The notes under the pieces were generated by a model. It saw only the letters and a list, made by a program, of their open reading frames with translations. It was not told where the DNA came from and did no database searches. A DNA stretch of 64,000 bases from Candidatus Nanoarchaeia archaeon (GTDB lineage Archaea > Nanobdellota > Nanobdellia > SCGC-AAA011-G17 > JAGVZF01), in contig DATDYQ010000104.1 in assembly GCA_035288965.1 (NCBI GenBank), forward strand, positions 10,089-74,088, read 5' to 3'. The position numbers and the translations under genes are program-made. This document shows positions 11,164-53,853 of the stretch, one piece after another (the stretch's first letter is position 1; each line of letters opens with the position of its first letter).

Positions 11164-12174
11164 TTATTTTTTATCTAAACTTGCTAACAATTCATCTAAA
11201 GTTAATGTTGCTGTTCCAACTTTGCCAATAACTACTGCTGCAGCATGGTTTGCAACAGACATAGAATCTTTAACTCCTAATTCAGAAGCTAATCCCAAGG
11301 AAAATATAGCTAATGCAGTATCTCCCGCTCCAGAAAGATCATATACTGGAACACTTTTTCCTTTAGAATGATGATAAAGCCCTTCTTGCCCAAAAAATTT
11401 CATTCCTTCTTTACCACAAGTAATAACGACCCCACCAGTCCAATATTTAGATATAAGCTTTCTACCAACATGATTTATATGCTTATTTTTGTCTAGTCCT
11501 GTTATCTCTCTTGCCTCTTTAGAATTTAACATTAAAAAATCCATATCATAATAAATACTAGCATTTATTGGTTTAGGTTCAACAATAAATAATTTCTTTC
11601 TTCTTTTAGCTTCCATTCTCAAAAATTTTACCAATGTTTTAGTAATAATCCCTTTACCATAATCTGATATTAAATATACATCTGCATCTAAATCAGATTC
11701 CCTAAAATGATTTATTAAAATATTAGTTTGATCTCTATTCAATCTTGTGTCCATTTCTTCATCGAATCTAGCAATTAAATCTTCATCATCTGCTATAAGC
11801 CTATTTTTTGTTGTGGTTATTCTATCCCTTAATGAAATGATTCTAGATTTAATTCCATTATAAGAAACTAAATCATAAACCACTTTCCCTGACTTATCAT
11901 TTCCCATAACACCATACAAATAAGCTGTAGCCCCAAGACTTGCAATATTACTTGCCGTATTCCCCGCACCCCCCAAAACATCAGAATGTCCTGTAACTTT
12001 TACTAGATTGGTTGCGCGTCTCTCTGGGTTTAATCTCTCTATCTCTCCTAAAATATAATGATCTAGCATTACATCTCCAACAATTAAAATTTTCCTTTCA
12101 GGGAATGTTCTGACAACTTCTTTTACTCTTTCTATGTTCATATTAATCACTTTGTACTTTCTACTCTTTCCCAA
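11164..12174 (-). CDS. hldA: D-glycero-beta-D-manno-heptose-7-phosphate kinase (HldE domain I / RfaE-I-like, PfkB family)
   Basis: VGDVMLDHY, GGAGNTASNIASLGA, DLSGAGDT and GKVGT match the HldE kinase domain motif-for-motif. There is no adenylyltransferase domain. Confidence 0.8.
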   Translation of the reverse strand: MGKSRKYKVINMNIERVKEVVRTFPERKILIVGDVMLDHYILGEIERLNPERRATNLVKVTGHSDVLGGAGNTASNIASLGATAYLYGVMGNDKSGKVVYDLVSYNGIKSRIISLRDRITTTKNRLIADDEDLIARFDEEMDTRLNRDQTNILINHFRESDLDADVYLISDYGKGIITKTLVKFLRMEAKRRKKLFIVEPKPINASIYYDMDFLMLNSKEAREITGLDKNKHINHVGRKLISKYWTGGVVITCGKEGMKFFGQEGLYHHSKGKSVPVYDLSGAGDTALAIFSLGLASELGVKDSMSVANHAAAVVIGKVGTATLTLDELLASLDKK

Positions 12175-17054: not shown

Positions 17055-17726
17055 CTAAATGATTAAACCAAATTTTCCCAAAACATCTTCTAGCGTATTT
17101 CTTCTATAATCAAATTGTACAGAATTTATTCCTAATTTTCTGGCCCCTTTTACATATTCTTTATTATCATCAATAAAAAGAGTTTCTTCTGGTTTGCTTC
17201 CCAATCTTTGTAATGCATTTTTATATATTATAGGATCTGGTTTTGCACATCTATCTTCAGAAGAAAATGTCAAATAATCTGAATTAAATCCATTAAAGAA
17301 TTCAACATCTTTATAATAATTAAGAATAGATTCTGTTATGTTCGATAATATTCCTACTTTTATCCCACCTTTAGCTATTTTTTTTGCTATTTCTACATTG
17401 TTTCCTATAACTAATCTTTCTCTACCTTGAATATAAAATGGCTTACTAAATAAATCCACACTATCACCTCTTAATAATATATTATCAGAAACTCCATTTC
17501 TCCTTCTTTGTTCGCCAAATGCTCTTTCTAGCCTGCTAACAGCTTCTTCATAAGTAATTCGACCCCTATTTAGATCTACAAGAACTGTATCTTTCAAAAC
17601 TTTAGCCATTTCTTGTTGTGGAACATTATACAAAGAGCTAAGATGATTTAGTATTAAATCATATCCTTCAATAACTAACACATTAGCCATATCAAAGAGC
17701 ACTGTTGTTATTTTTGTTTTAAACAT
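17055..17726 (-). CDS. HAD-superfamily hydrolase (phosphatase-like)
   Basis: N-terminal 'VLFDMANVLV' and C-terminal 'LFIDDNKEYVKGARKLG' HAD motifs. Confidence 0.5.
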   Translation of the reverse strand: MFKTKITTVLFDMANVLVIEGYDLILNHLSSLYNVPQQEMAKVLKDTVLVDLNRGRITYEEAVSRLERAFGEQRRRNGVSDNILLRGDSVDLFSKPFYIQGRERLVIGNNVEIAKKIAKGGIKVGILSNITESILNYYKDVEFFNGFNSDYLTFSSEDRCAKPDPIIYKNALQRLGSKPEETLFIDDNKEYVKGARKLGINSVQFDYRRNTLEDVLGKFGLII

Positions 17727-17805: not shown

Positions 17806-18870
17806 GTGGTACATGCAAAATTTGATGAAACAGAAAAAGAACAAGAATATATAAACACAGTAAAAAGGCTACTTAATCCGCATCGCCCTTATTTAAAAAT
17901 AGGTAAAGTAAAACTTGGAGCTGGAAGAACAAATGATAATCTTCTTGTTTATGATACTGATAGTAAACCAGTTTGTGTTGTAAGAAAATCAAGACTAGAT
18001 AGAACTAATATGGCTCATTTTTATTTTCTTCAAATACAATCATTAGAAAGAGAAAAATTTCTTCTTGAATATATTGGCAAACATGCTCCAAAGGTTCCTA
18101 TCCCAAGACTTATTGCAGCAGATCAAGATCCAGAAGATGGACTAGATTATCTTGTAGTATCCCATATTAGTGGAATAAATTTTGCTGATATTGCAGGATC
18201 TTTAACTCCAAATCAATATAATAATTATATGAGAAATTTAGGAGAAACCATCGCTCCTGTAAGTAATTTAACATTCGGATCATTCGGTATTATCGGACCT
18301 GATGGAATTATAATTAATCCATTCCAAAGATGGAGTGATAGAATTGCCTTCTCAATATATGGAAAATTAAAAGATCCTGCTTCAACCGAATATTTTACAC
18401 ATGAATTATTATTTGAAAAAATTCCTGAATTTATTGAAAAACATAGAGAAGCTCTAGATAAAAATAGAAGACCTACAGCTGTTTTATATGATCTGCATTC
18501 AAAAAATTTTAATGTAGATCCAACAACAGAAAAAATCACTGGTTTCTTTGATATCGGTTTAGGACTTATTGCTAATAGAACATTGGAATTCGTTCCCATT
18601 GAACTTAATACAGTAAACTTTGGAAAAACAGAACGTCCGGCTGCATTAGAAGCATTTTTTGAGGGGTATGGACTATCTCTAAAAGATAGAGCAGATTATG
18701 AAGCTGCAAAACCAGTCTATGCACTAAATCATTCACTGGGGGCGGTTTTAGCCTATCATAATAATCCTGTAGATGATCTAAGAAGAGATCTTTGGAGTAG
18801 AGAAGTCTTCAAACCAAGAGTTGAAGAAATAGTAGAAAAAGGAATAGTAAATATGGTAAGATGGTTCTGA
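17806..18870 (+). CDS. APH-fold phosphotransferase (aminoglycoside/choline-kinase-like). It may be a sugar kinase.
   Basis: 'LYDLHSKNFNVD' (HxDxxxxN-like) and 'FFDIGLG'. Confidence 0.5.
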   Translation: MVHAKFDETEKEQEYINTVKRLLNPHRPYLKIGKVKLGAGRTNDNLLVYDTDSKPVCVVRKSRLDRTNMAHFYFLQIQSLEREKFLLEYIGKHAPKVPIPRLIAADQDPEDGLDYLVVSHISGINFADIAGSLTPNQYNNYMRNLGETIAPVSNLTFGSFGIIGPDGIIINPFQRWSDRIAFSIYGKLKDPASTEYFTHELLFEKIPEFIEKHREALDKNRRPTAVLYDLHSKNFNVDPTTEKITGFFDIGLGLIANRTLEFVPIELNTVNFGKTERPAALEAFFEGYGLSLKDRADYEAAKPVYALNHSLGAVLAYHNNPVDDLRRDLWSREVFKPRVEEIVEKGIVNMVRWF

Positions 18871-19748
18871 ACAAATTACACGGCATTATAGTACCCTTAT
18901 CGACACCAATTAAAGAGGATCAATCAATAGATTTTCCTGCAACTAAAAATCTAGTGGATAAATTAATTGAAAATGGTGTTGATGGACTTTTTCCCTTAAG
19001 TGGTACTGGAGAGTTTCCGATGCTTTCTTTAAGAGAATCTAAACAGTTTATAAATTTTGTAATGAGATCTTCTAGTGGAAGAGTTCCAGTTTACCCTGGA
19101 GCTTTTAGAGACAATTTAGGTGACACTTTAGAATTGGCTTTTGCTGCAGAAATATCTGGTGCTGAAGGAATTGTTTTAATGCCACCTTATTTTTATGGTC
19201 GTATTAAGAGTGAAGATATCGTAGACCAAGTTAGAAGAATAAAATGTAATATAAATTTACCTGTTATTTTTTATAATACAAATTCAAAATTAAGATTAGA
19301 TGAAGCTAGTATGCTTAGATTACATCAAGAAGGTTTAGTTATTGGAGCAAAAGAGGGAAGTAAAGATTTAGACTATCTAAAAAGATTAGCAGAATCTGGC
19401 ATGTCTGTTCTTCCAGGTAGCGATAAACTTCTTTATGCTGCATCTCAATTTGGTTGTGTGGGTGGTTTTCCTGGAAGTGCTAATGTATTAACGAAAGGGT
19501 TTGTAACCTTGTGGAAATTTATTCAAGAAGAAAAATTACAAGAAGCTGAGGCATTGCAATCTAGAATTAGTAGTGTTGTTGAAGTTATGTATAAAACAAA
19601 CCCCTATAGCGCCCAAACAGGTGTTAAGATTGGTTTAGAATATCTAGGTATCTGCCTTTCAAGAATGAAATATCCAATGCCTCAAGCAACTACAGAAGAA
19701 AAAAGAATTATTTTCGAAACATTAGATAAAAACAAGGATTTACTTTAA
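18861..19748 (+). CDS. DapA/NanA-family class I aldolase (N-acetylneuraminate-lyase / DHDPS-like)
   Basis: 'GIIVPLSTP...VDGLFPLSGTGEFPMLSLRE' at the N-terminus matches the family pattern. Confidence 0.65.
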   Translation: MVLNKLHGIIVPLSTPIKEDQSIDFPATKNLVDKLIENGVDGLFPLSGTGEFPMLSLRESKQFINFVMRSSSGRVPVYPGAFRDNLGDTLELAFAAEISGAEGIVLMPPYFYGRIKSEDIVDQVRRIKCNINLPVIFYNTNSKLRLDEASMLRLHQEGLVIGAKEGSKDLDYLKRLAESGMSVLPGSDKLLYAASQFGCVGGFPGSANVLTKGFVTLWKFIQEEKLQEAEALQSRISSVVEVMYKTNPYSAQTGVKIGLEYLGICLSRMKYPMPQATTEEKRIIFETLDKNKDLL

Positions 19749-19784: not shown

Positions 19785-21548
19785 ATGAAAGATGTAAAGA
19801 TCGGTGACAAGATAATTGGTAAAGGCCACCCTGTCTTTGTTATAGCAGAAACAGCCTCCAGCCATGTAGGAAATAAAGAAAAACTTAAACAGCTAATTAA
19901 AGCTGCTATAGATTCAAATGCAGACGCTATCAACTTACAAAAATTCTATGCAAATGAGCTTGCTGTTCCTCAAAATCCGCAACATAAGGATTTGGCAATC
20001 ATCGAACTTAAAGATCCAGATTGGAAAGAAGTTCTAGATTATGCTAAAACTTTAAACACAATTATTATTGGAAATCCTTTTGATGAATCTAGTGTAGACT
20101 TCTTTGATCCTTATGTGGATGCTTTCAAGATTCATTCTACTGATATTAATAATCCTGAAATGTTAATGAAAGTAGCAAAAAAGAATAAGCCAATGTTTCT
20201 TGGTATTGGCGGAGCAAAACCTTTTGAAATAAAAAGGGCAATTAAAATTCTTCAATCAACTGGTAATGATCAAATTGTTTTAATGCATGGTTTTCAGGCT
20301 TTCCCAACAAGATTAGAGGATAGTAATCTAAAGTTAATTCCAACAGTAGAAAAAGAATATAATCTTCCAACTGGATTTCTTGATCATATCGATGCTGAAA
20401 CAAAAATGGCAATGATTCTTCCATTACTCTCAGTAGTCCAAGGAGCTGTTTTGATTGAAAAACATATAACATTAGATAGAAAATTAAAAGAATATGATTA
20501 TTTTTCAGCTTTACATCCATCTGAATTCAAAGAAATGATGTTCTTGATTAGAGAAACAGAAAAAGCAATTGGTCATGGACAATTTATTCAATCAGAAGGT
20601 GAAATTGGATATAACACTATGATGAAAAAGAATTTAGTTGCTAAAGTTCCCATAAAAAAAGATACAATTTTAACAAAAGATATGATAACTTTCAAAAGAG
20701 CTCGAGTAAATCCTGGTCCTTCTCCAATTGATGTTGAAAAATTTATTGGAAAATCAGTTAATAAAGATTTAAATGAAAATGATCCAATCACATTAGATGA
20801 CTTAAATCTTAAATCAATTATTACATTAGCTGTAAGAATGAAATCATCTAGATTGCCAAGAAAAGCGTTAGCTGTTGTTGAAGATCAAACAGTTATAGAA
20901 CATTTAATAGATAGAATGCAATTATGTAAGGTTCCATCTGATTTAATCTTATGTACATCCACTCATCCAGATGACGCTGTTTTAATAGACATAGCAAAGA
21001 AAAAAGGTATAAAATATTTCGCAGGTTCAGAAGATGATGTTATGGATCGTTTCATCAAAGCAGCATTGCCTGAAAAAGCAGATATCATTGTAAGAGTTAC
21101 AGGGGATAATATATTTACAGATCCTGAATTCCTAGATGAAACAATAAAATTTCATATAAAAAATAATCTGGATTATTCATTACAAGAAGGATTACCAATT
21201 GGATGTATTTCAGAAGTTATTACCTTACATAATTTAATAAAAGCTCATGAAGCAACTCTTGATCCTGAAAACACAGAATATATGACATATTATTTGAGAA
21301 ATGAAGATTACTTTAAAGGTAACTCCTTGAAGGTCTCAAGTGAATTTAACTTCCCTAACTACAGATTGACAATAGATAATCCTGAAGATTTACAACTTAT
21401 CCAAGAAATATTTAAAGAACTTTATGTTCCTGGAAAAGTAATTCCATTAAGAGATATTTTAAATTTATTAAATAAAAAGCCTGAACTATTAAATATAAAT
21501 AAGAATGTTCAAGGAATACAATTTACAGTTAAAGGTTTGAAAAGTTAG
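19785..21548 (+). CDS. Fusion of a NeuB-type nonulosonic-acid synthase (with SAF domain) and a C-terminal CMP-sugar cytidylyltransferase (NeuA/SpsF-like)
   Basis: 'GKGHPVFVIAETASSHVGNKEKLKQLIKAAIDSNADAINLQKF' (NeuB). 'ITLAVRMKSSRLPRKAL...VRVTGDNIFTDPEFLD' (CTP_transf_3-like). Confidence 0.75.
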   Translation: MKDVKIGDKIIGKGHPVFVIAETASSHVGNKEKLKQLIKAAIDSNADAINLQKFYANELAVPQNPQHKDLAIIELKDPDWKEVLDYAKTLNTIIIGNPFDESSVDFFDPYVDAFKIHSTDINNPEMLMKVAKKNKPMFLGIGGAKPFEIKRAIKILQSTGNDQIVLMHGFQAFPTRLEDSNLKLIPTVEKEYNLPTGFLDHIDAETKMAMILPLLSVVQGAVLIEKHITLDRKLKEYDYFSALHPSEFKEMMFLIRETEKAIGHGQFIQSEGEIGYNTMMKKNLVAKVPIKKDTILTKDMITFKRARVNPGPSPIDVEKFIGKSVNKDLNENDPITLDDLNLKSIITLAVRMKSSRLPRKALAVVEDQTVIEHLIDRMQLCKVPSDLILCTSTHPDDAVLIDIAKKKGIKYFAGSEDDVMDRFIKAALPEKADIIVRVTGDNIFTDPEFLDETIKFHIKNNLDYSLQEGLPIGCISEVITLHNLIKAHEATLDPENTEYMTYYLRNEDYFKGNSLKVSSEFNFPNYRLTIDNPEDLQLIQEIFKELYVPGKVIPLRDILNLLNKKPELLNINKNVQGIQFTVKGLKS

Positions 21549-21910: not shown

Positions 21911-22393
21911 ATGCCAATTGATGATGCATTAAATGATTTGCCAAGATCAAAAGAAGCGTCAAAACAAATAGTTGCACCTCCAGAACCAGAGCAAGCAAAT
22001 AAAGTAATTTTCACTGATGCCGTACAACAATTTAGAAATAGTTTACAATATTATCTTCCTTATCAATTGGCAACAATTATAAAAAGTAAAGGACTAAATG
22101 TAACCTGGGATAACGGCAATATAGTTTCTTTTTTAGATAATGAAATTTTTTTAAAATTTACGTCTATTGGAATTGCAGCCCATAAAAGATTTTGGTTCGG
22201 TCATGATTGGATAGGTTATTTATATTTTAATGATCCTAATAAATGGAAATTGGAAGTTTATGGAAGAAAAAATATAGATAGATTAAAAAATCTTGCTGAC
22301 GAAATATCAAAACAATATTCAAAAGATATAGAGCTTATATTAGAATTAGAATATCCAAAATCAAAGTCAGTAGAATATGCTGGTTTTATCTAA
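21911..22393 (+). CDS. Hypothetical protein whose N-terminal 'MPIDDALNDLPRS' motif is shared with the ORF at 55209
   Basis: ORF. The N-terminal paralogy is seen directly. Confidence 0.45.
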   Translation: MPIDDALNDLPRSKEASKQIVAPPEPEQANKVIFTDAVQQFRNSLQYYLPYQLATIIKSKGLNVTWDNGNIVSFLDNEIFLKFTSIGIAAHKRFWFGHDWIGYLYFNDPNKWKLEVYGRKNIDRLKNLADEISKQYSKDIELILELEYPKSKSVEYAGFI

Positions 22394-23535
22394 ATCTTTA
22401 ATTCTTCATAGATTAACTTAACAACCCTTTCAGTTGCTTTCCCGTCATTACCTTCAACAAAGCTTTCCCTTCTTTGCTTTAATTCTTCTCTAAATTCTCC
22501 ATTATATAAAATTTTCATTAAATTAGGAACCAACTCTCTTGTATTATAAACACCAAGAGAATAACCATTTTTGTTGGTAATCAAAGGATCCTCTGTTTTT
22601 AATCCAACTTGTAAACTTAAAACATCAGTATCTAATAAACAAGCTTCCATTAATGAAGTTGACATCATTCCAACTACCAAATTAGAAGCTTTCATTGTCT
22701 CTCTTGTATTATAATTATTATTATACTCTCTTTTTGTTGCGTCTTCCTTCCCACTCATGACTAAATTCATATCTTTTAATAATAATGTTCTTTCTACAAT
22801 ATCCTCAAATGTCTCTCTAGGATGAAATTTAATAACAAATGTCCCATGATATCCCATGTCATTCAATCCATTAGATAATATTTTAAAAATTGTTTCTTCA
22901 TTATAACCCCAATCAGTAGTTTTATTCGCTTTAAGATCTCCTTTAATTGGTTGTGAAATAAAGGTTATCAAACTTCCTTCTGGATGTACCCCAAAATATT
23001 CTCTTATCTCTTTTCTTTTATCAATTGTAAATTTAGCATTTAATTCTCCTATATCATCAAAGTAAGGGTTTCCTGTAATCTTTAATCTTTCTCTAGGTAA
23101 ACCTTCTTTAACCATTTTTTCCAAACTTTCTGCATCTAATGCCGTATGAATATCAGGCATGCATCCTAAGTTATCTCCTGTTTTGTCATTTCTAACCCTT
23201 ACAATATAATTGACTGGTAAATCTATAACAGAAATGCTTCTTACCCCTCTTTTCCTAGCTTCCAATATTAATTTTTTTTCAACACACCATCCACCGCTAC
23301 TTCCCGTGACTAGAAGGTTTGGTTTTTCTTCGTCTTCAAATTCAACTTCGGCAGATGTATAATCATTCAATATAGAATGAGATAAACCAGCTTGTGTAAA
23401 TGAACTAATAGCAGGTCCGTTAGCTATTAATGTCAAATCCACTTTATCATCTTCTTGCAATCTTCTTGCAACAGGAATAACAGAATTCGCACTTCCAGTA
23501 TACTGCGCTGCCACCATTACTTTAGATTTTGTCAC
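22390..23535 (-). CDS. TagB/TagF-like GT-B protein (CDP-glycerol glycerophosphotransferase-family fold, PF04464-like)
   Basis: 'IKFHPRE' and a C-terminal 'MMSTSLMEACLLDTDVLSL' GT-B donor-site-like region. Confidence 0.45.
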   Translation of the reverse strand: MTKSKVMVAAQYTGSANSVIPVARRLQEDDKVDLTLIANGPAISSFTQAGLSHSILNDYTSAEVEFEDEEKPNLLVTGSSGGWCVEKKLILEARKRGVRSISVIDLPVNYIVRVRNDKTGDNLGCMPDIHTALDAESLEKMVKEGLPRERLKITGNPYFDDIGELNAKFTIDKRKEIREYFGVHPEGSLITFISQPIKGDLKANKTTDWGYNEETIFKILSNGLNDMGYHGTFVIKFHPRETFEDIVERTLLLKDMNLVMSGKEDATKREYNNNYNTRETMKASNLVVGMMSTSLMEACLLDTDVLSLQVGLKTEDPLITNKNGYSLGVYNTRELVPNLMKILYNGEFREELKQRRESFVEGNDGKATERVVKLIYEELKI

Positions 23536-23574
23536 TTTTTATCACAAAATAAAGGTGTAGAAAAATATATAAAT

Positions 23575-25359
23575 CTATTTCTGATATATTTCATCAATAA
23601 GATTTATAACTCTTTCGGTGCTTTTTCCATCAATTTTATAAGCATAATCCTTAATAAATTTCTCCATGTTTTTTTCTAATTTTTCTTTAATCTTTTTATT
23701 ATTAAAAACATCATTTATTGCATTTTTTAATTCTTTTTCTTCTTTGACATCAATTACACATCCATAATCATTGTAATCAATCATCTCATTGCTTCCTTTG
23801 ATATTAGCTAAATTTAAAGTAATAACAGGAACATTAAATAACATAGATTCAATAACAACAGTAGACGAGGCTCTGCTTATAGTTAAATCTGCAATATTCA
23901 AAAAGTTATAAATATCATAATCTTTAACAACAACAACTTTATTTTTAATATTATTTAATCTGCTATTATAAAAATCAACATCATCTTTTGGGTGTAATTT
24001 TATTATTAGTTGTTCATCTTGCAAGGAATTAATAACTGCCTTGAACATTTCCTCCTTCTCTGGAACAGTCTGTGTTCCGAATAATATTATCTTCTTATCT
24101 TTATCCAAATTAAATTGTTTATATACTTCTTCTTTATCATACTCTTTATTTTTAATAATATCAAACTTACTGGCTCCAGTTATAACTATTTTCTCTTCAT
24201 TAACATTATTTTGCAATAAAAATTTCTTCGTAGATTCTCCCCAAACAGCTATTTTTGTGCTTGTTACAGGAACAAATCCCAATCTTCCAGCAACTCCATG
24301 TTGTAAAACTAAAGATTTTATTTCTAATTTATTCCCGACAAATGCAATTGTTTTTCCAAATCTATGAACGTCACTACCCATAACAATAATATTTATCTCT
24401 TCTTTTTTGATAACAATTTTAATTCCTTCTATCAATCTAACAACTTCATAAAAATGTTTAAACACAGTATAATGCAATTCATCTTCTAAAATTTCCCATA
24501 AATTAATATTATCATACATAAATCTCCTATCTTGGTATAAAATCTCCCATATTTGATCAAGCTCTTTTTTCTTTTTATCAAGAACTTTGTTTATTTCACT
24601 TAAATCATAATCTGCAAATGTATTAAATTTTATTCCTTTTTTCGCAAATGCCTCCTGAACATCTAAAGCCAAAGCGAATATTAAATAATTTTTATTCTGT
24701 TTTTTCATCTCTTCTATAATAGGAAGCATTATCTGCGGATCTAAATTTAAATAACTAAAAAACATCACTTTCTTATCGCCATAATTTTTATTTTTATAAT
24801 TAAAACTTTTTAGTTTCACATAATTATCCAAAACAACTGGTTTTATGTATCTTCCAGCAATAAATTTTGTTTTTTCTCTAAATATATTAATAAGATTAAC
24901 ATTCCTATCGCTAACAATCTCATATTTAGCATTCAGTTCTTTCAAACTAGTAATTATTGTTTTGCTTAGAAAATCTTTTCCATCAATTACCAAAAACATA
25001 TCTGGCTTCTCTTTCTCAATAACCTTCTTTATTAATTCTATATTTGCAATCAAGCTTCTTAAAACAAGTTCAAAATGTAAGCTTGTACATTCATATAATG
25101 GAATTCCATCATGCTTTGCTAATTTTTTTGCTTCAGGAAAACTAATCATATTCCAATTAATGCTTATATTCCTTATTTTGTCAGCAAGTTCATTAATTAA
25201 TTTGGTTTCATTGATATAATCACTCTTAGTTTTAACATTAGCAAAATTAACTTTTTTGTTAGAAAGATTTAGTATTATTCCATCCCCTAAATCTTTTAAT
25301 CTTTTATTGATCTTATCTAGTTCTTTCTCGTCTTTTACTATTCCTATAATCCTTGTCAT
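23575..25359 (-). CDS. TagF-like GT-B protein (CDP-alcohol phosphotransferase or a possible CMP-sugar transferase)
   Basis: 'IKLHPKDD', 'ISRASSTVVIESMLFNVPVI' and an 'IIVMGSDVHRFGKTIAFVGNK' region. Confidence 0.5.
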   Translation of the reverse strand: MTRIIGIVKDEKELDKINKRLKDLGDGIILNLSNKKVNFANVKTKSDYINETKLINELADKIRNISINWNMISFPEAKKLAKHDGIPLYECTSLHFELVLRSLIANIELIKKVIEKEKPDMFLVIDGKDFLSKTIITSLKELNAKYEIVSDRNVNLINIFREKTKFIAGRYIKPVVLDNYVKLKSFNYKNKNYGDKKVMFFSYLNLDPQIMLPIIEEMKKQNKNYLIFALALDVQEAFAKKGIKFNTFADYDLSEINKVLDKKKKELDQIWEILYQDRRFMYDNINLWEILEDELHYTVFKHFYEVVRLIEGIKIVIKKEEINIIVMGSDVHRFGKTIAFVGNKLEIKSLVLQHGVAGRLGFVPVTSTKIAVWGESTKKFLLQNNVNEEKIVITGASKFDIIKNKEYDKEEVYKQFNLDKDKKIILFGTQTVPEKEEMFKAVINSLQDEQLIIKLHPKDDVDFYNSRLNNIKNKVVVVKDYDIYNFLNIADLTISRASSTVVIESMLFNVPVITLNLANIKGSNEMIDYNDYGCVIDVKEEKELKNAINDVFNNKKIKEKLEKNMEKFIKDYAYKIDGKSTERVINLIDEIYQK

Positions 25360-25371
25360 ACTCTATCATAA

Positions 25372-26442
25372 CTATTTCTTTAATTCTCCCACGTGTTCCC
25401 AATCCAATATATCATCCTCTTTCATATCTTTTAATACCCTTCTTCCTATAATCTCGCTAAAGAATCTTGGATTAATTCCTGTTCCAGGTCTTTTTGATGT
25501 TATATTTTTAACATCAAATATTTCCCCTGCCCTAATATCCCTATTTGCTACAATGCTCCTTCTTGCTAATCTTTGAGCAGGCTCTTCAACTTTAATTGGT
25601 CGTCTTGCTAATGTACTTCCTAATGCACTTTCTATCTGTTTTATATTTGTGACCATCTCTTTCAGTTCTTTAGGATCAACAGATAACCAATGATCGGCAC
25701 TTCCCTTCAATGTTTTATCTATAGTATAATGCTTCTCTATCATCTTTGCTCCCAGACTAACAGCTCCGATCGGCACCAAAGTTCCCAAACTATGGTCACT
25801 TAATCCGATTAAATAATCCGGAAATATTTTCTTTAAAGTTGGAATCATATTCAAATTCATATCTTTCGTAGGTGTCGGATAAGATAAAATGCAATGCAAT
25901 AATATTATCTGATTATTTCCTTGCTCTTCAATAACGCTTACAGCTTCTTCTATCTCTCCAATTGTAGCTGCTCCTGTAGATAATGCCATCGGCAATCCTT
26001 TTTTTGCTATATGTTTTAAAAGATTTAAGTGAGTTATATCTGCACTTGCAATTTTATACATTGGCACTCCAATCTTTTCCAAGAAATCAGCGCTTTCTTC
26101 ATCAAATGGTGTTGAAAAAAATATTATTCCTAATTCTTCAGCATATTTCTGCATTTTAATAAAATCTTCTTCACTAAGATAATCGAAGTTCTTGTATTCA
26201 TCATATTGTGTTTCATCACTTTCTGTCCAATATTTAGGAGAATTTTTTATTGCTATTTTTTCAGCTTTATATGTTTGGAATTTTATTGCATCTGCCCCGT
26301 TTTCTTTTGCTTTTTTTATTAATTCATAACCTCTTTCCAACATACAATCATGATTTACTCCAGCTTCAGCTACAACAAAACAAGGCTCATCATCCCCTAC
26401 ATATCTATTTCCTATCTTTATTCTTGTCACCATTTCAACCAC
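25372..26442 (-). CDS. neuB: NeuB-family nonulosonic-acid synthase (second copy, with SAF domain)
   Basis: 'CFVVAEAGVNHDCMLERGYELIKKAKENGADAIKFQTYKAEKI' and a C-terminal SAF-like domain. Confidence 0.8.
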   Translation of the reverse strand: MVEMVTRIKIGNRYVGDDEPCFVVAEAGVNHDCMLERGYELIKKAKENGADAIKFQTYKAEKIAIKNSPKYWTESDETQYDEYKNFDYLSEEDFIKMQKYAEELGIIFFSTPFDEESADFLEKIGVPMYKIASADITHLNLLKHIAKKGLPMALSTGAATIGEIEEAVSVIEEQGNNQIILLHCILSYPTPTKDMNLNMIPTLKKIFPDYLIGLSDHSLGTLVPIGAVSLGAKMIEKHYTIDKTLKGSADHWLSVDPKELKEMVTNIKQIESALGSTLARRPIKVEEPAQRLARRSIVANRDIRAGEIFDVKNITSKRPGTGINPRFFSEIIGRRVLKDMKEDDILDWEHVGELKK

Positions 26443-27826
26443 CCTTATAATTTTTTATTATCTGTTCAGCAAGCCATAAATCATATTCATTATATATCCT
26501 TACAGCTTCGTTCGGCATCATCTCAACATAAGCTACACTATTCCCGATAATCCCATTATTGTTTAAATTCTCTAAAGTTGTAATATAAAATGCTCCATTT
26601 TCTTCTAGTATAGTATCTTTTTCATCTCTCAATAATCTTTTATTAAATAATGGCTCGATTCCATATCTTCCTGGTTTCCAATGAAAATTAAGATTTGCAC
26701 AAACAGAGACTATGCTATCTGTTTTAAATATTAATTGAGTAAAAATTCCTTCTTTTATATGCTCACTTGTTTTAAAAGGGCTTATCAAATGTAAAACAGC
26801 AATTAAATCAGGAACATAATCATCATTCTTCTTCAAATAATCAACAACATGTCTTACAACATCATCAACATGAACTGTTTTTTTTGCTAAATCAATTGGT
26901 CTTTTGATAACATAAGCTCCTAATTTTTCAGCAGCACTTGCAATATCGTAATCTTCAGTAGAAACAACAATTTTATTAAACAATTCAGTTTTTTTCGCTT
27001 CATCTATTGTATAAGATAATAAAGGTTTTCCATTTAAATTTGCAATTGGAATTTTAATCCCATTAATCATGTCGCCTCTAGCAGGAATAACAGCTAATAT
27101 TTTCAAATTTTTTAACTTTCCATCATAATGTCTTTTAACAAATTCTTCCTTTACAATTCTTTTAGAATGTAAAATCCCTTTCATATTCTTAGTCATATTT
27201 GCACCATGTCTTCTATAATAAAACAAAGGCAGATTAATATTTCTAACTTTAAATTTAGTAATAAACTTCATCCAAAAATCATAATCTTCTCCAATCTTTA
27301 AATTTTCATTATATCCCCCAATTTCATCATAGCATATTCTCTTGTACATCGCTCCAGCAGCTAAAGGACTTCTTTGCAGTAAATCAACTTCTTCATTAAC
27401 TTTCATCAATCTATTATGCTCCAATATCTTTCCATCTTCGTCTATAGTATAATAATCTGAATAAACCAAATCAACATCTTTATTTTCATACAAAAATCTT
27501 TCTTCTACTAATAGCAAATTATCATCAAAATAATCATCAGCATCTAATCTTATTATAAAATCCCCTTGAGACATACTAATTCCTTTATTACAGGCTGCGC
27601 TTAATCCAACATTATCTACCCTTATTACTTTCAAATTATTTGGAAATTTTGATTTATAACTTTGAATTACATCTTGAGTATTATCTGTACTTCCATCATC
27701 AACTAAGACAATTTCAAAATCTTTATAAGTTTGCTTGGTCAAGCTATCTAAACATTTATCTAAAAATCTCCCATAATTGTGCGCGGTTATTATAACGCTT
27801 ACTTTTGGTTTATTAATAGCTTCCAT
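26435..27826 (-). CDS. Fusion of an N-terminal GT2 domain and a C-terminal CMP-sugar cytidylyltransferase (NeuA-like)
   Basis: 'VSVIITAHNYGRFLDKCLDSLTKQTYKDFEIVLVDDGSTDNT' (GT2). 'ILAVIPARGDMINGIKIPIANLNGKPLLSYTIDEAKK' (NeuA/KdsB-like). Confidence 0.7.
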   Translation of the reverse strand: MEAINKPKVSVIITAHNYGRFLDKCLDSLTKQTYKDFEIVLVDDGSTDNTQDVIQSYKSKFPNNLKVIRVDNVGLSAACNKGISMSQGDFIIRLDADDYFDDNLLLVEERFLYENKDVDLVYSDYYTIDEDGKILEHNRLMKVNEEVDLLQRSPLAAGAMYKRICYDEIGGYNENLKIGEDYDFWMKFITKFKVRNINLPLFYYRRHGANMTKNMKGILHSKRIVKEEFVKRHYDGKLKNLKILAVIPARGDMINGIKIPIANLNGKPLLSYTIDEAKKTELFNKIVVSTEDYDIASAAEKLGAYVIKRPIDLAKKTVHVDDVVRHVVDYLKKNDDYVPDLIAVLHLISPFKTSEHIKEGIFTQLIFKTDSIVSVCANLNFHWKPGRYGIEPLFNKRLLRDEKDTILEENGAFYITTLENLNNNGIIGNSVAYVEMMPNEAVRIYNEYDLWLAEQIIKNYKGG

Positions 27827-27856: not shown

Positions 27857-28933
27857 CTATGCAGTAGCCTTTACTTCAGAAGGTTTAGCATATCTATATC
27901 CTTCATGTAAATTACAAGTTCTGCAAGCAGGCATAACATCTAATTTATTTTGTTTATGCAACTCTCTTAATTGACTTAATATCGCTCCGTTCCATATTTC
28001 TTTTAATGTTTGCTTAGTAACATCCCCAACTACATTCTTCCTAAACCAATCTCCACAGCACATCATAACTTTTCCATCCCACGCTACCATCAATCTTTGG
28101 AATGGTTGTGGACAGGTTTTTCTTCCTAAAGTAATTTGATCATAATTAATTGATCTATCATTTTCTTCTCCTTCTCCTCTATTACTGTAATCATTTGTTG
28201 CGACATGGTCTACTATCCCTTCCCACATTTTAATAAATTGGTCAACTTCATGAACATTATCTTTCATCCTAACCATCTGTATTCTGATAAATGGTTTTTT
28301 CTTTCCCATTTCATTTCTTATTCTTACAAAATCTTTAATATTTTTCATTAAAATATCATATTTTGCTCTCACTCTTATTTTTTCATAAGTTTCTTTAGTA
28401 GCCCCATCCATAGAAAATATTATTCCATCTAATCCTGCTTCTATCAATCCCCTAATTTTATTTTCATTTAATAAAGTTCCATTAGAATTTGTTTGTAATT
28501 CTTTAATCCCTTTATCTTTTGCATATTTCACCATTTCAATAAACTTGGGATGAATTAACGGTTCACCTCTCCAATTAAGTTTCATAGAATATAATCCTTC
28601 TTTTGCGCATTCGTCTACAATTTTATGAAATAAATCCATTGTAATAAATCCATCTTGAATTCCACTTCTATCAAAACTTTGTGGGCACATAACGCATCTC
28701 AAATTACATGCATCGCTCGGTTCAATGTCCACATGTGTTGGAAATTTAGGAATTAATCCAAATCTTGCTGTTCTAGGGCTCCAGTTCCATTTAGCTCTAT
28801 ACCATAAATATTTTGGATCTTTCTTATTCATGAACTTTTTAAATTTAGCTTTAAATCCACCTTGTATATGATGTCCACTCCCACCATAGAAGTGTTGTTT
28901 CTCGTTTGTTTCATTACTTTGTTCAGTTGACAT
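27857..28933 (-). CDS. Radical SAM enzyme with a C-terminal Cys-rich SPASM/twitch-like domain
   Basis: 'SDACNLRCVMCP' (CxxxCxxC), then 'CPQPF...CCGDW...CRTCN'. Confidence 0.7.
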   Translation of the reverse strand: MSTEQSNETNEKQHFYGGSGHHIQGGFKAKFKKFMNKKDPKYLWYRAKWNWSPRTARFGLIPKFPTHVDIEPSDACNLRCVMCPQSFDRSGIQDGFITMDLFHKIVDECAKEGLYSMKLNWRGEPLIHPKFIEMVKYAKDKGIKELQTNSNGTLLNENKIRGLIEAGLDGIIFSMDGATKETYEKIRVRAKYDILMKNIKDFVRIRNEMGKKKPFIRIQMVRMKDNVHEVDQFIKMWEGIVDHVATNDYSNRGEGEENDRSINYDQITLGRKTCPQPFQRLMVAWDGKVMMCCGDWFRKNVVGDVTKQTLKEIWNGAILSQLRELHKQNKLDVMPACRTCNLHEGYRYAKPSEVKATA

Positions 28934-28940
28934 ATTGATC

Positions 28941-30395
28941 TTAAACCGTAGCTTCTCCGCTTTTTCCTGTTATTAAATTTAAAGCACCTAAAGCTCCTCT
29001 CGCATAATATTTTACTTGTTCAAATGATTTAATTCCAACAAACATTTTCCATAAATAGCTTGGTCTCATATAAAATTCTTTGTAAGCTTTCTTTCTTAAC
29101 TCTTGTAGTTGATCTGTTGTTAACTCTCTAGATCTTATTAATGGATCTTCAGCTATTTGCACCCAATTATCCCAATTTGGATCTGAAATTAAGTTTTCTT
29201 TTACAGTAATATCATACAATCCGGTTCCAACAATCGGGATTGCTAAAAAGAAATAAGCTAACTGAGGGTTAATTTCTTTAGCTAATTTTATTGTTTCTTC
29301 AAATGTTTCTTTTGTTTCACCTGGATATCCTAAAATAAAAGATGCTGATGCCGGAATTCCAACTTCGTGTATTAACTTGAAAGCTGCTTTTATTTGTGCA
29401 GGAGTTTGATCTTTTTCCATTGCATCCAATATTTTTTGACTTCCTGATTCAACCCCAAATCTAACAAAATAACATCCTGATCTTTTCATCTTTTCTAAGC
29501 TTTCCCTATCACAATGATTAACTCTAGTTAAACAGTTCCAATGCAAATCATAATCTCTTTTTATTAATCCATCTAAAATTGGGTTCATTCTACTTTTATT
29601 AATAACAAAAATTTCGTCATTAAATTCTAAGCAATGAATATTAAATTTATCAACTAAATAATCTATTTCTTCCAATGTTCTTTCAACACTCCAATATCTA
29701 ACTTTTCTTGTCCACATAACTTTAGAAGCGCAAAAGTTACATCTATAAGGACAACCTCTCAAAGAAAAGAATATGGAAAACGGTTGTAATTTAACTCCGC
29801 TAACTTGGAAAGAGCTATGATGCGCAGGTGGTCTATATAATTCCATTGGTAATAAATCATAAGCTGGCATTGGCAACATATCTAAGTTTTCAATTAAAGG
29901 ACGAGGAGCAGTCATTCTTATCTGTCCATTATCTCTATAAATCATTCCATTAACTTTAGATAAATCTTTTTTTCCTCTTTTCTCTAATTTATCCAATAAT
30001 TCAACTGTTGTTAACTCTCCCTCGCTAATAACTCCATAATCAACAATTGGAAATTCCTTCATTGTCTCAAATGGCAATGCAGTCATGTGATCTCCGCCTA
30101 AGAAAGTCTTGACATTAGGATTAACATTTCTAGCTATTTGTAAAACATCACAAGCTTTTTTTACTGTAGGCGTAACAGCTCCAACCCCAACAACATCAAC
30201 ATCTTTAGGTATATGTTTATGTAATTCCTTCATCGGAATTTGCAACGCTACTGCATCTAAAATGCTTACTTTATGTCCCTTTTCTCTCATGTAAGCAGCA
30301 AGATAAGCTAGCCCCATTGGTTGATTAATTCCTGCAACTGTTGGAACCTTTTTATATACTTCTTGATAACTTGGATTTATTAGCTGAACTTTCAT
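28941..30395 (-). CDS. B12-binding radical SAM enzyme
   Basis: N-terminal B12-binding-like domain, 'CPYRCNFC', 'FGVESGS'. Confidence 0.8.
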   Translation of the reverse strand: MKVQLINPSYQEVYKKVPTVAGINQPMGLAYLAAYMREKGHKVSILDAVALQIPMKELHKHIPKDVDVVGVGAVTPTVKKACDVLQIARNVNPNVKTFLGGDHMTALPFETMKEFPIVDYGVISEGELTTVELLDKLEKRGKKDLSKVNGMIYRDNGQIRMTAPRPLIENLDMLPMPAYDLLPMELYRPPAHHSSFQVSGVKLQPFSIFFSLRGCPYRCNFCASKVMWTRKVRYWSVERTLEEIDYLVDKFNIHCLEFNDEIFVINKSRMNPILDGLIKRDYDLHWNCLTRVNHCDRESLEKMKRSGCYFVRFGVESGSQKILDAMEKDQTPAQIKAAFKLIHEVGIPASASFILGYPGETKETFEETIKLAKEINPQLAYFFLAIPIVGTGLYDITVKENLISDPNWDNWVQIAEDPLIRSRELTTDQLQELRKKAYKEFYMRPSYLWKMFVGIKSFEQVKYYARGALGALNLITGKSGEATV

Positions 30396-30544: not shown

Positions 30545-32047
30545 ATGAATAAAAAACATTTGAATATTATAGCAGGTGGAGCTTTAATCACTCTAATTGG
30601 AATTCTAATCTCTAAATTATTCAGTTATTTTTATAGATTAATTGTTTCAAGATTGGGAAGTGAAAATTATGGATTAATATCATTAGCTTTCGCTGTTGTT
30701 GGAATACTTTCAATATTCACTTCCATTGGTTTAGATTTTGGTATTACTAGATATATCTCTTATTATAAAAACAAAAATGATCTTCCAAGATTAAAAGGAA
30801 CTTTTTTTTCAGCTTTTAAGATTAGTTTTGTTTTAAGTATAATATTTAGTATGATTTTATTCTTTTCTTCTAATTTCATTTCTATAAATCTGTTTCATAA
30901 TCAAAATCTTTCCATTTTATTAAAAGTATTTTCTCTTGTTTTAATATTCCAATCAGTAAGAAAGATAATAACAGAAACTATAAGGGCATTCCAAAAGATA
31001 AATTATTATGTAATCTCATTAAATATAGTTGAGCCTGTTGTAAATCTTTTATTAACTTTAATTTTTATCTATCTTGGTTATAGCCTTACAGGCATTAGTA
31101 TTGCTTATGTATCTGCTGTATTTATCAGTCTTGCAATTTCTATTTATTTTTTAGAAAAAAAAGTATTTCCGATATTTACTAGTAAAATTGCTTCTATTTA
31201 TGAAAATAAGGAATTAATATCATATTCATGGCCGTTAATGTTTAGTACAGCTTTAGCAAGATTTATTGTCTGGACAGATATATTATTCCTAGGATTTTAT
31301 AAAACCGCTTCTGACGTTGGAATCTATAATACTGCAATACCTACTGCACAATTGCTTTTAATAGCACCAACAGCTATTCTAAACCTATTTGTTCCGATAA
31401 TAACTGAATTAATAGCAAAAAATAATCCAGATGAAATTAAAGGTATTTATCAAACAACAACAAAATGGATTTTCTTCATTAACTTTCCAATATTTCTGAT
31501 ATTTATAATGAATTCTAATCCAATATTAAAAGTATTATTTGGTTCAGAATATTCTATTGGTTTTATGGCTTTAATCGTTTTGTCTGTTGGTTATTTTATT
31601 AATTCAATATTATTTGCGTCAAGATACATGCTTGATTCTCTAAAGAAAACAAAATTTATTTTACTAAATACAATCATAGTCACATTGTTAAATATCATTC
31701 TCAACTTAATCTTAATTCCAAAATATGGAATTTTAGGAGCAGCGATAGCAACCGCATTAACAATTTCATTATTTGGAATAATAAACTGGATTAAAGTTTA
31801 TAATATAAATAAAATAAATGTTTTCAAATTAAGTTATGTAAAATCTATATTTGCTAGCATAATCGCAGTAGTGCCAGTATATTTATTCTTAAAAATTACT
31901 AACCTTACAACCTTCTTCCTTTCATTTATCCTATCTGGAGCAATTTACGGTTTCTTAATGTGGAAAACAAAAGCCTTATCTAAAGAAGACGGTGAAGTGC
32001 TTGATAGTTTAATAAAATTTAAAAAAGTAAAAGATATAGGATCATAA
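30545..32047 (+). CDS. Wzx-like oligosaccharide flippase (polysaccharide biosynthesis protein, MOP superfamily)
   Basis: About 12-14 TM segments in the typical Wzx arrangement. Confidence 0.65.
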   Translation: MNKKHLNIIAGGALITLIGILISKLFSYFYRLIVSRLGSENYGLISLAFAVVGILSIFTSIGLDFGITRYISYYKNKNDLPRLKGTFFSAFKISFVLSIIFSMILFFSSNFISINLFHNQNLSILLKVFSLVLIFQSVRKIITETIRAFQKINYYVISLNIVEPVVNLLLTLIFIYLGYSLTGISIAYVSAVFISLAISIYFLEKKVFPIFTSKIASIYENKELISYSWPLMFSTALARFIVWTDILFLGFYKTASDVGIYNTAIPTAQLLLIAPTAILNLFVPIITELIAKNNPDEIKGIYQTTTKWIFFINFPIFLIFIMNSNPILKVLFGSEYSIGFMALIVLSVGYFINSILFASRYMLDSLKKTKFILLNTIIVTLLNIILNLILIPKYGILGAAIATALTISLFGIINWIKVYNINKINVFKLSYVKSIFASIIAVVPVYLFLKITNLTTFFLSFILSGAIYGFLMWKTKALSKEDGEVLDSLIKFKKVKDIGS

Positions 32048-44037: not shown

Positions 44038-44476
44038 TCATATCTATAAATTTTTTTCTATATATCTTAATATCTTCGTTATTTATTTTTGAAATAAAAT
44101 TAATTAATTTACTATTAAAAATTTCAGCTTTTCTTATGGTATCTTTTACATCTTCTTTAGTTACCACAAAATCAACATAATATTGTTTGTCTATTCTTTC
44201 TTTTTTAGCATCAAAAATTATAGAAGCAGAATGATTTTCAGATTTAATCCCAATTTTAAATAATAACGCAGTTAATAGATGATACATGCTATAATAGGCA
44301 AGTCCGACAGATTCTTCAAATTTATCATTATTCAGAAGAATTTTTGCAGAGATAAGATTGCTTTCAGATTTTATAATATAAGATTGTTTTAATTCTTCAC
44401 TTGATTCAACTAATTCTAATTTTCCTTGCTTACGAAGTTTCTTCAAAAAATTTATTTTTTTCATAATATGCTTCAA
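44030..44476 (-). CDS. HEPN-domain protein (toxin-like partner of the adjacent nucleotidyltransferase)
   Basis: Helical HEPN-like N-terminal region. It overlaps the upstream MNT gene by about 47 nt. Confidence 0.5.
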   Translation of the reverse strand: MKHIMKKINFLKKLRKQGKLELVESSEELKQSYIIKSESNLISAKILLNNDKFEESVGLAYYSMYHLLTALLFKIGIKSENHSASIIFDAKKERIDKQYYVDFVVTKEDVKDTIRKAEIFNSKLINFISKINNEDIKIYRKKFIDMIK

Positions 44477-53756: not shown

Positions 53757-53853
53757 CGCCGCAGCCAGGATTTGAACCTGGACATCCTTTCGGAAACCAG
53801 CTATCTTTCTCAAGACTCAAGGCTGGCGCCATACCAGATTAGGCGACTGCGGC
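53757..53853 (-). tRNA. tRNA-Ser (anticodon UGA) with a ~13-nt intron in the anticodon loop. No encoded CCA.
   Basis: The reverse complement folds as a 7-bp acceptor stem GCCGCAG/CTGCGGC plus discriminator G. D-arm is GCC-TAATCTGGTAT-GGC. Anticodon stem is CCAGC/GCTGG, with 20 nt between the halves (loop CTTGAG|A plus intron). There is a long variable arm (TCC-GAAA-GGA hairpin). T-arm is CCAGG-TTCAAAT-CCTGG. Confidence 0.75.

Follow-up and report, generated by a model that had tools for sequence, protein, structure and literature searches.

Transferases for nonulosonic acids, the nine-carbon sialic-acid-like sugars, are poorly known, as was stated in the study of Tannerella forsythia that describes the systems closest to the one reported here (PMC5420450). 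In T. forsythia, deletion of Tanf_01245 or TFUB4_00887 removes the terminal derivative of pseudaminic acid (Pse) or of legionaminic acid (Leg) from the O-glycan and complementation restores it; Tanf_01245 is the Pse5Am7Gra transferase and TFUB4_00887 the Leg-derivative transferase, neither can replace the other, and BFO_1060 is the orthologue of both in strain FDC 92A2 (PMC5420450). A study of Bacillus subtilis failed to identify its Leg transferase (PMC7439481). Here we analyse two adjacent genes, whose products we call A and B, in a 64,000-nucleotide stretch of DNA (the window: assembly GCA_035288965.1, contig DATDYQ010000104.1, positions 10,089-74,088 of the forward strand) from a DPANN archaeon, Candidatus Nanoarchaeia. 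We propose, with a probability that we put at roughly 0.55, that both proteins are nonulosonic-acid transferases, transferring a nine-carbon sugar acid activated with cytidine monophosphate (CMP) to a surface glycan. It is quite probable that B is a CMP-nonulosonate:glycan transferase; A has an even chance of being a second one, and its main rival role, that of a nucleoside diphosphate (NDP)-sugar hydrolase, appears somewhat unlikely.

Positions 22390-25359 of the window are filled by exactly two long intact open reading frames (ORFs), A and B, both on the minus strand, next to genes for nonulosonate synthesis and activation:

22390-23535, minus strand: protein A, 381 residues, GTG start, with an alternative ATG at codon 7
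23575-25359, minus strand: protein B, 594 residues
25372-26442, minus strand: NeuB-type nonulosonate synthase (PF03102, 294 bits), 12 nucleotides upstream of B in the same operon
26435-27826, minus strand: fusion of glycosyltransferase family 2 (GT2) and CTP_transf_3 (PseF-like) domains, overlapping the NeuB gene, its C-terminal half covering the PseF model
19785-21548, plus strand: fusion of NeuB and CTP_transf_3, a second synthase plus activator, convergent with A

The sequence-only reading, an earlier interpretation made from the letters and their translations, had placed the pair between two NeuB/cytidylyltransferase genes, and this is what we find, with the NeuB and CTP_transf_3 fusion on the plus strand and the pair of NeuB and GT2-CTP_transf_3 on the minus strand. 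The minus-strand NeuB scores 360 bits with the NCBIfam model NeuB_NnaB and 313 bits with PseI, each slightly under its cut-off, and the GT2 fusion, which reaches 73.5 bits with PseF (model positions 1-204 of 222), is predicted to supply the CMP-activated sugar. B and A are the last genes of a tightly packed six-gene operon on the minus strand, which runs B12-binding radical SAM, radical SAM/SPASM, GT2-cytidylyltransferase, NeuB, B, A.

The best NCBIfam model for both proteins is NF046086, the BFO_1060 family glycosyltransferase, at scores below its 200-bit cut-off: 46.7 bits for A (E 2e-12, model positions 36-362 of 365) and 105.3 bits for B (E 4e-30). The second NCBIfam model is TIGR04396, 'surface carbohydrate biosynthesis protein', with which B scores 74.6 bits (cut-off 125). 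BFO_1060 is also the top model in 24 of 27 members of the B family and in 43 of 45 members of the A family, with the wecB, NeuC, TarF and TarB models trailing it in both families at much weaker E-values; none of these members reaches 200 bits, the best E-values being 2e-36 and 4e-27. No curated family scores better than BFO_1060 for A, B or either of their families. The BFO_1060 proteins have a glycosyltransferase B (GT-B) fold with an HP motif, and their genes adjoin genes of CMP-nonulosonate synthesis, as do those of A and B in the window operon and in related loci. The differences, apart from the scores, are that B has 594 residues against about 445 and contains an extra half-domain, and that neither protein has a clear D/E-D/E-G motif at the strand end, B having Q-H-G and A having I-D-L there, in a comparison made without direct alignment of the T. 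forsythia sequence. HP and D/E-D/E-G are the sialyltransferase motifs of the T. forsythia transferases (PMC5420450). As the host is an archaeon, the acceptor would probably be a dolichol-linked glycan and not an O-glycan of the Bacteroidota type. What is new is that A and B lie below the threshold of every curated family, the domain architecture of B and the archaeal host.

Pfam matches are weaker still for A, with 20.1 bits for Epimerase_2 (PF02350), 14.6 for Glyphos_transf (PF04464) and 13.9 for the polysialyltransferase family GT38 (PF07388, cut-off 23.3), all below cut-off. B passes Epimerase_2 (33.3 bits, cut-off 30.6) and Glycos_transf_1 (29.9 bits, cut-off 26.4) and scores 14.4 bits with Capsule_synth (PF05159, cut-off 20), which has no match in A; PF07388 has none in B. 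The PF04464 match in A (E 0.016, cut-off 22.1) covers residues 329-376, and B has no PF04464 match at E ≤ 1. The sequence-only reading had assigned both proteins to the TagB/TagF-like family, and this assignment does not hold: canonical TagF membership is rejected as PF04464 fails for both, and A has Asp105 in place of the first histidine of that family. A comparison of PF04464 with PF05159, which had been suggested as a check, decides nothing because A and B belong to neither. The bacterial GT-B sialyltransferases of families GT38, GT52 and GT80 and the Kdo transferases KpsC/KpsS resemble the proposed activity in their CMP-ulosonate donor, their HP motif and an acidic or histidine base at the strand end of the N-terminal domain, but A and B show only trace similarity to them by hidden Markov model (HMM) comparison, with all Pfam values under cut-off and 22.4 bits between the B-family profile and the KpsC chain 6mgd. 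Membership of KpsC/KpsS or of the polysialyltransferases is rejected on these HMM scores.

The two proteins are related to each other, their C-terminal halves aligning at 24% identity (E 4e-11), and A is a compact GT-B paralogue of B. The motifs and domains on which the comparison rests are as follows, all on the minus strand:

23221-23229, minus strand: VID of A, containing D105
23152-23160, minus strand: MPD of A
23065-23079, minus strand: ITGNP of A
22816-22830, minus strand: KFHPR of A, residues 236-240
22642-22665, minus strand: MSTSLMEA of A
22423-22446, minus strand: DGKATERV of A
24901-25359, minus strand: residues 1-153 of B, a degenerate duplicate of the acceptor-side Rossmann half-domain, without QHG
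24292-24774, minus strand: residues 196-356 of B, the catalytic N-terminal half of the GT-B fold, ending in LVLQHG
24295-24306, minus strand: LQHG of B, containing Q353, H354 and G355
23578-24291, minus strand: residues 357-594 of B, the nucleotide-donor half
24169-24183, minus strand: ITG of B
23986-24000, minus strand: KLHPK of B, residues 454-458
23845-23868, minus strand: SSTVVIES of B
23608-23631, minus strand: DGKSTERV of B

Both sequence patterns that had been pointed out earlier, K[FL]HP[KR] and a C-terminal donor-site pattern, are confirmed. KFHPR and KLHPK are in register in the alignment of A with B and their histidine is conserved in 95% of 153 B-family and 100% of 77 A-family sequences, so that the match is not due to chance, and the donor-side S-T-x-x-x-E (292-297 in A, 499-504 in B) and DGK(A/S)TERV are present in both. 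Conservation in the B family, computed over these 153 sequences, extends along the acceptor side (D/E330 91%, Q353 88%, H354 80%, G355 91%) and the donor half (G374 97%, T394-G395 90-99%, D400 95%, K454 95%, H456 95%, P457 92%, S499 99%, T500 91%, E504 86%), including D577, G578 and R583 (92-95%). In the A family (n = 77) the conserved residues are G14, G78, D105 (96%), P127, D134, H238 (100%), P239 and S292 (99%); the invariance of T-G-N-P-x-F-D there is uninformative because this motif was the search pattern. D105 of A holds the place of H354 of B, and one sub-branch of the A family (P0015, P0040-P0070) has histidine instead of Asp105. Aspartate at this base position is also a feature of GT80 and GT52 enzymes.

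In B, residues 1-153 are an internal duplicate of the acceptor-side residues 196-356. In hhalign the family columns 1-160 match columns 195-375 with a probability of 99.8 (E 5.6e-29), the secondary-structure pattern repeats, and the duplication is common to the whole family of about 600 residues. Searched against 1.84 billion cluster representatives (clusters at 50% identity), the B-family profile matched 3507 of them at E ≤ 1e-30 and, at E ≤ 1e-92, more than 150 along the full length, so that the complete architecture is a common one. Family members typically have 600-670 residues, and none of the relatives returned with source names carried an informative one.

Structure prediction, another check suggested earlier, gave confident GT-B folds in AlphaFold for both proteins, with a predicted local distance difference test score (pLDDT) of 90.7 for A and 84.4 for B (AF2). 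Their closest solved folds are UDP-N-acetylglucosamine (UDP-GlcNAc) 2-epimerases (template modelling (TM) score 0.65-0.72), which in Foldseek searches of the PDB take the top 35-50 places for A and B (E ~1e-14, TM 0.6-0.72, identity 12-17%); TagF and TarL rank 39-45 for B. Searches of PDB sequences with A or B as single sequences returned nothing useful. With the B-family profile the result is nearly level, TarL scoring 60.4 bits, the TagF-like polymerase Cps3D 58.8 and epimerases at most 55.8, and the TarL and Cps3D matches are restricted to the donor-side domain while the epimerase matches reach into the acceptor-side domain. The K-x-H-P histidine, the S-(S/T)-x-x-x-E helix and the C-terminal DG-K-(A/S)-x-x-R are common to TagF-like proteins, epimerases and A/B. 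Judged from these sequence likenesses, TagF-like, epimerase, BFO_1060 and A/B proteins form one GT-B clade, within which A and B would be an unnamed clade between the TagF-like phosphotransferases, the UDP-GlcNAc 2-epimerases and the BFO_1060 transferases of T. forsythia. To our knowledge there is no solved structure for any member of the BFO_1060 branch, and for these two reasons a fold search cannot separate the families.

The epimerase likeness brings in a different reading, in which A or B or both, with A the likelier, are NDP-sugar hydrolases or hydrolysing 2-epimerases, that is 'masked glycosyltransferases' analogous to PseG, LegG or NeuC. The operon would then be read as A (hydrolase), NeuB, cytidylyltransferase and B (transferase), with the freed hexosamine condensed with phosphoenolpyruvate (PEP) by NeuB. 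Epimerase_2 is indeed the best Pfam match, NeuC structures (5xvs, 5zlr) are among the top structural matches, NeuC and LegG act in nonulosonate pathways, and the histidine at the HP position, corresponding to H213 of WecB, the donor-side E-A helix and DG-K-A-x-x-R are common to epimerases and A/B. The sequence-only reading had named clear best hits to UDP-GlcNAc 2-epimerases as the result that would speak against it; epimerases do give the best Pfam and Foldseek matches, but not clear ones, B being 2.7 bits above the Epimerase_2 cut-off and A below it. The residues also differ. The catalytic acids of the epimerases, D95, E117 and E131 in Escherichia coli WecB numbering, have not been preserved as a triad: D95 is Thr/Ser79 in the A family, where Asp105 adjoins the E117 position, and in B the motif I-E-A-G of the Neisseria epimerase 6VLB falls on L-Q-H-G, so that Glu117 is Gln353 (Gln in 88% of the B family, Glu in 2 of 153), while the P-W-P-E-E loop with Glu131 has no counterpart in the B alignment and D/E330 is kept. 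NCBIfam scores for wecB and NeuC (TIGR00236 and TIGR03568) are about tenfold below cut-off or absent, B reaching 26.5 bits with wecB (cut-off 210) and having no match to NeuC; wecB, NeuC and PseG give no match for A at E ≤ 1, against the 46.7 bits of BFO_1060, and PseG (TIGR03590) gives none for B at the same limit. An hhalign comparison with the NeuC-like gene of one related locus (L004) found remote homology (probability 97 and 95), at a divergence too great for catalytic residues to be placed. PseG itself shares the GT-B fold and is embedded in nonulosonate operons, which could explain the operon position of A-like genes, but its catalytic histidine lies in an N-terminal G-x-G-H, where A has G-S-A-N and the A family G-G-x-N, without histidine. 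T. forsythia has separate, biochemically proven PseG and LegG besides BFO_1060 (PMC5378307).

The TagF-like enzymes (TagB/TagF/TarL, Cps3D) suggest yet another reading, that A and B are phosphotransferases adding a polyol-phosphate or phospho-alcohol from a CDP-linked donor. There is homology in the donor-side domain, where S-S/T-x-x-x-E, DG-x-x-x-R and K-x-H-P are in common; CMP is the leaving group, as proposed for B; TarL and Cps3D are the best PDB sequence matches of the B-family profile; and B has two conserved histidines, as TagF and TarL do, one of them at the end of the acceptor-side domain. Precomputed PF04464 matches exist on many relatives, and 29 of 45 A-family members match the TarF model weakly. 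In L007 a B relative is the neighbour of a cytidylyltransferase-PEP mutase fusion of the phosphonate pathway (859-2157 of that locus), so that phosphonate decoration may share that locus with nonulosonate genes. In profile alignment H456 of B falls on H433 (KMHP) of TarL, which contacts the alpha-phosphate and is proposed to protonate it for CMP departure (PMC10901376). However, the alignments with TarL and Cps3D are confined to the donor side and include neither the N-terminal domain nor a pairing of H354 with TarL H300. In TagF and TarL the base histidine, His300 in TarL, is preceded by a tryptophan that stacks on it (PMC10901376); B has Gln before H354, and A has Asp105 where the first catalytic histidine should be. 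The genomic partners of A and B are NeuB and CMP-ulosonate synthetases, and among the window ORFs scanned against Pfam there is no gene for CDP-polyol synthesis of the TagD, TarI or LicC type, all cytidylyltransferases being CTP_transf_3. With PF04464 below cut-off for A and absent for B, we consider this the least probable of the readings weighed here. The sequence-only reading is partly borne out: transfer from a CMP donor is in line with the phosphate-binding histidine of HP type in a GT-B fold, the NeuB/cytidylyltransferase operon and BFO_1060 as nearest family, whereas the TagB/TagF label is unsupported and the phospho-alcohol option seems very improbable.

The linkage to NeuB and CTP_transf_3 extends well beyond this genome, in both bacteria and archaea. 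The arrangement B, A, small ORF(s), NeuB/CTP fusion recurs in a sister genome (L001, B 92% identical) and in a third lineage (L010, B 76% and A 52% identical), where the fusion adjoins the A homologue; it is present in L001 too, and an ORF resembling it occurs in L019. Direct look-ups found three of four B relatives (P0033, P0030 and P0027, not P0026) among NeuB, CTP_transf_3, PseB-like, DegT and radical SAM genes. When one genome for each GTDB species was scanned with B-family peptide motifs only, 18 loci came up, in Ignavibacteria, Planctomycetia, Omnitrophota, Bacillota, Thermoplasmata, Methanoregula and Woese-, Pace- and Aenigmatarchaeota. NeuB and CTP_transf_3, detected by local HMMs built from the genes in hand, are both present within 10 kb in 13 of the 18; the other five are truncated contigs with little or one-sided flank, which makes 13 of 13 informative loci. 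For A, a metagenome scan yielded 80 loci, and among the 42 with at least 8 kb of flank NeuB was present in 30, CTP_transf_3 in 30 and either in 32. By our own estimate, from 1-3 copies per 1-4 Mb, NeuB is expected in a few per cent of random 20-kb windows.

This linkage bears on the reading that A and B are ordinary UDP- or GDP-sugar glycosyltransferases building the glycan backbone, with another enzyme, such as the GT2 half of the neighbouring fusion, adding the nine-carbon sugar. B passes Glycos_transf_1 and matches the MurG and diglucosyl-diacylglycerol synthase models weakly, glycosyltransferase genes abound in the cluster, a natural candidate for the transferase of the CMP-sugar exists in the GT2::CTP_transf_3 fusion, and some relatives have no NeuB nearby. 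But the association with NeuB and CTP_transf_3 is far tighter than would suit a generic glycosyltransferase of a glycan cluster, and the best curated family is one of nonulosonate transferases. The K-x-H-P histidine is moreover a hallmark of CMP-releasing enzymes (TagF/TarL, bacterial sialyltransferases) or epimerases and not of GT4 or GT28 (PMC10901376; PMC5420450). Ordinary backbone synthesis therefore seems very unlikely to us.

For the hydrolase reading, the related loci point in both directions. A four-gene module of GFO/IDH oxidoreductase (often fused to DUF218), DegT aminotransferase of about 427 residues, A-like protein and CTP_transf_3 recurs in L015, L097, L100 and L104 in otherwise complete Pse/Leg-type operons, for example at 7091-11749 of L097, the A-like protein there being 25-28% identical to A. 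When the unassigned neighbours in L097 and L100 were searched with Pfam, no further candidate for a hydrolase turned up, PseG itself not having been searched for in the loci, and ORFs downstream of the A-like genes in L014 and L015 are not NeuB. Canonical epimerases are rarer in the NeuB loci that contain A (3 of 30) than in those with B only (5 of about 15), and none, nor PseG, is found among the window ORFs scanned. In two lineages A-like proteins are fused in frame to CTP_transf_3, both parts complete (A-like at residues ~5-350, CTP_transf_3 at ~355-573), with 72-82% identity within the main lineage and 43-46% between the two; these fusions resemble the PseF-PseG fusions of Helicobacter. 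Their ORFs are:

L062, 7039-8889: A-like::CTP_transf_3 fusion
L063, 9986-12406: A-like::CTP_transf_3 fusion
L066, 9962-11851: A-like::CTP_transf_3 fusion
L078, 9989-11836: A-like::CTP_transf_3 fusion
L079, 1-1854: A-like::CTP_transf_3 fusion
L086, 5794-7605: A-like::CTP_transf_3 fusion
L098, 60-1868: A-like::CTP_transf_3 fusion

On the other side, canonical Epimerase_2 genes coexist with B-like genes in five loci (L004, L018, L020, L028, L030), including WecB-like and NeuC-like types, and with A-like genes in three (L085, L089, L099). L085 and L099 carry WecB-like genes, and in L089 an A-like gene, a cytidylyltransferase gene, neuB and a NeuC-like epimerase gene form one run, so that the A-like protein is not needed as a hydrolase there. 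The 'pathway hole' that a hydrolase would fill is unproven, as no search for PseG was made in the loci, and the NanE of the window (below) gives another route to a NeuB substrate. In about a quarter of the A-like loci neither NeuB nor a cytidylyltransferase is close by, and some adjoin AglB/STT3 and other glycosyltransferases. A canonical epimerase is rejected, given the missing catalytic residues, the low NCBIfam scores and the true epimerases that coexist in related loci. A hydrolase role is further disfavoured for B in particular, since the nearest curated family is a transferase and since a duplicated acceptor-side domain makes little sense for a hydrolase. Overall we regard a hydrolase or hydrolysing-epimerase role for one or both proteins as unlikely.

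If A and B are transferases, the following scenario would fit the residues. The operon would make a CMP-activated nine-carbon sugar acid, and B would take the sugar off its CMP donor and attach it to a hydroxyl of the lipid-linked surface glycan as this grows. H456 of B, at the place of TarL H433, could protonate the alpha-phosphate and let CMP leave; H354 of QHG, at the end of the last acceptor-side strand, may act as general base; S499/T500 and E504 may hold the phosphate and the ribose; and the motif-less N-terminal half-domain may add an acceptor- or membrane-binding surface. A has the same donor-side residues (H238, S292, E297), with Asp105 replacing the base histidine, and probably does the same chemistry, either using what the second NeuB/cytidylyltransferase makes or acting at a second acceptor position. 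The analysis establishes the folds, the motifs with their conservation, the distances between families, the make-up of the operon and the linkage to NeuB and cytidylyltransferase genes across phyla; the donor identity, the acceptor, the catalytic bases and the pairing of each enzyme with a NeuB product we infer.

Several points weigh against this proposal. Both proteins score under the cut-off of every curated family, BFO_1060 (200 bits) and TIGR04396 (125 bits) included, and it is the UDP-GlcNAc 2-epimerases, among them the hydrolysing NeuC, that give the best Pfam match and the top PDB matches in Foldseek. The function of BFO_1060 is known from genetics and not from an enzyme assay. Linkage to NeuB and NeuA genes would be equally expected of a biosynthetic enzyme, and nonulosonate pathways do require an enzyme of GT-B/epimerase fold (PseG, LegG or NeuC) that frees the hexosamine. 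In L097, L100 and L015 the A-like gene stands between the aminotransferase and the cytidylyltransferase as the only Epimerase_2/GT-B-like protein seen there, a place that resembles the one of a PseG/LegG-type hydrolase. There is no NeuB within 10 kb of one B relative (L002) and of six A relatives (L008, L009, L041, L058, L059, L065), and the true transferase could be the GT2 part of the fusion with the cytidylyltransferase. Domain plus neighbourhood can mislead: SpsB of B. subtilis, a TagB-domain protein encoded beside legionaminic-acid genes, is not needed for Leg transfer (PMC7439481).

More broadly, and at somewhat less than even odds, we suggest that the B-type family (at least 3500 clusters in bacteria and archaea) consists of dedicated CMP-nonulosonate transferases in which a duplicated acceptor-side half-domain precedes a catalytic GT-B unit, that the A type is its sister family with an aspartate base and in some cases a fused CMP-sugar synthetase, that the two are the Pse/Leg-type transferases long found missing in DPANN, Patescibacteria, Omnitrophota and numerous further uncultured lineages, and that this archaeon caps its glycan with two sialic-acid-like sugars. 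If the proteins are transferases, a function could be given to thousands of genes that are unannotated, or mislabelled as UDP-GlcNAc 2-epimerase or CDP-glycerol glycerophosphotransferase, DPANN archaea with their reduced genomes would be seen to invest in sialic-acid-like surface capping, which bears on host-cell attachment, and new enzymes would become available for glyco-engineering. If A were a hydrolase, it would represent a non-canonical replacement for PseG, LegG or NeuC, closing a gap in many predicted pathways.

The rest of the glycan cluster, which occupies the whole first 48 kb of the window, contains many GT2, GT4 and GT9 genes, two PMT_2 genes, a flippase, carbamoyltransferase, DegT, acetyltransferase and oxidoreductase genes, four radical SAM genes and NanE. 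The genes most relevant to sugar supply and modification, and the ORF next to A, are:

27857-28933, minus strand: radical SAM/SPASM gene, in the head part of the operon of A and B
28941-30395, minus strand: B12-binding radical SAM gene, at the head of the same operon
21911-22393, plus strand: ORF of 160 residues, opposite to A and overlapping its stop codon by 4 nucleotides, with no family assigned
17055-17726, minus strand: HAD phosphatase, accessory sugar-acid metabolism
17806-18870, plus strand: APH-family kinase, accessory sugar-acid metabolism
18861-19748, plus strand: DHDPS/NanA-family aldolase, accessory sugar-acid metabolism
264-1004, minus strand: NanE, N-acetylmannosamine 6-phosphate (ManNAc-6-P) 2-epimerase (PF04131, 155 bits; NCBIfam 210.6 bits, above the cut-off of 189)
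30545-32047, plus strand: Wzx/MurJ-type flippase of the glycan cluster (Polysacc_synt, 98 bits)

The ORF of 160 residues had no match in Pfam and NCBIfam scans, and its place is taken by an ORF of 159 residues in L001. The two radical SAM genes of the operon probably modify the sugar. Counting these two, the cluster has four radical SAM genes (2383-3726, 27857-28933, 28941-30395, 35842-37455), three of them B12-binding and one of SPASM type, and since such genes also lie beside A or B homologues in L001, L004, L006, L008 and L013, this suggests a radical modification of the sugar, perhaps C-methylation. The sister genome L001 lacks the HAD, APH and DHDPS genes. NanE, together with a kinase and the HAD phosphatase, could supply the NeuB substrate without a hydrolysing epimerase of the NeuC type, and the presence in the window of NanE, a PfkB kinase (11164-12174), the HAD phosphatase, the APH-family kinase and the DHDPS/NanA-family aldolase hints at a phosphorylated, animal-like route from ManNAc-6-P to nonulosonate-9-P rather than the NeuC route.

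Beyond the cluster, the plus-strand gene at 51187-53751 encodes a protein of 854 residues identical to GenBank HLC56898.1 ('PGF-pre-PGF domain-containing protein'), which is likely to be an archaeosortase-processed surface protein and possibly a carrier of the glycan. On the minus strand at 53757-53853, Rfam gives a tRNA match of 97 nucleotides (47.8 bits) where ARAGORN makes no call; it is probably an archaeal tRNA with an intron. Several proteins of the window are identical to GenBank proteins of a metagenome-assembled genome of a 'Candidatus Nanoarchaeia archaeon', which together with this tRNA indicates a DPANN host. Small nucleotidyltransferase (NTP_transf_2/Polbeta) genes lie in or beside the cluster at 44430-44987 and 55774-56463, and at 4157-4814 of L001 a nucleotidyltransferase is paired with HEPN; such genes resemble toxin-antitoxin modules.

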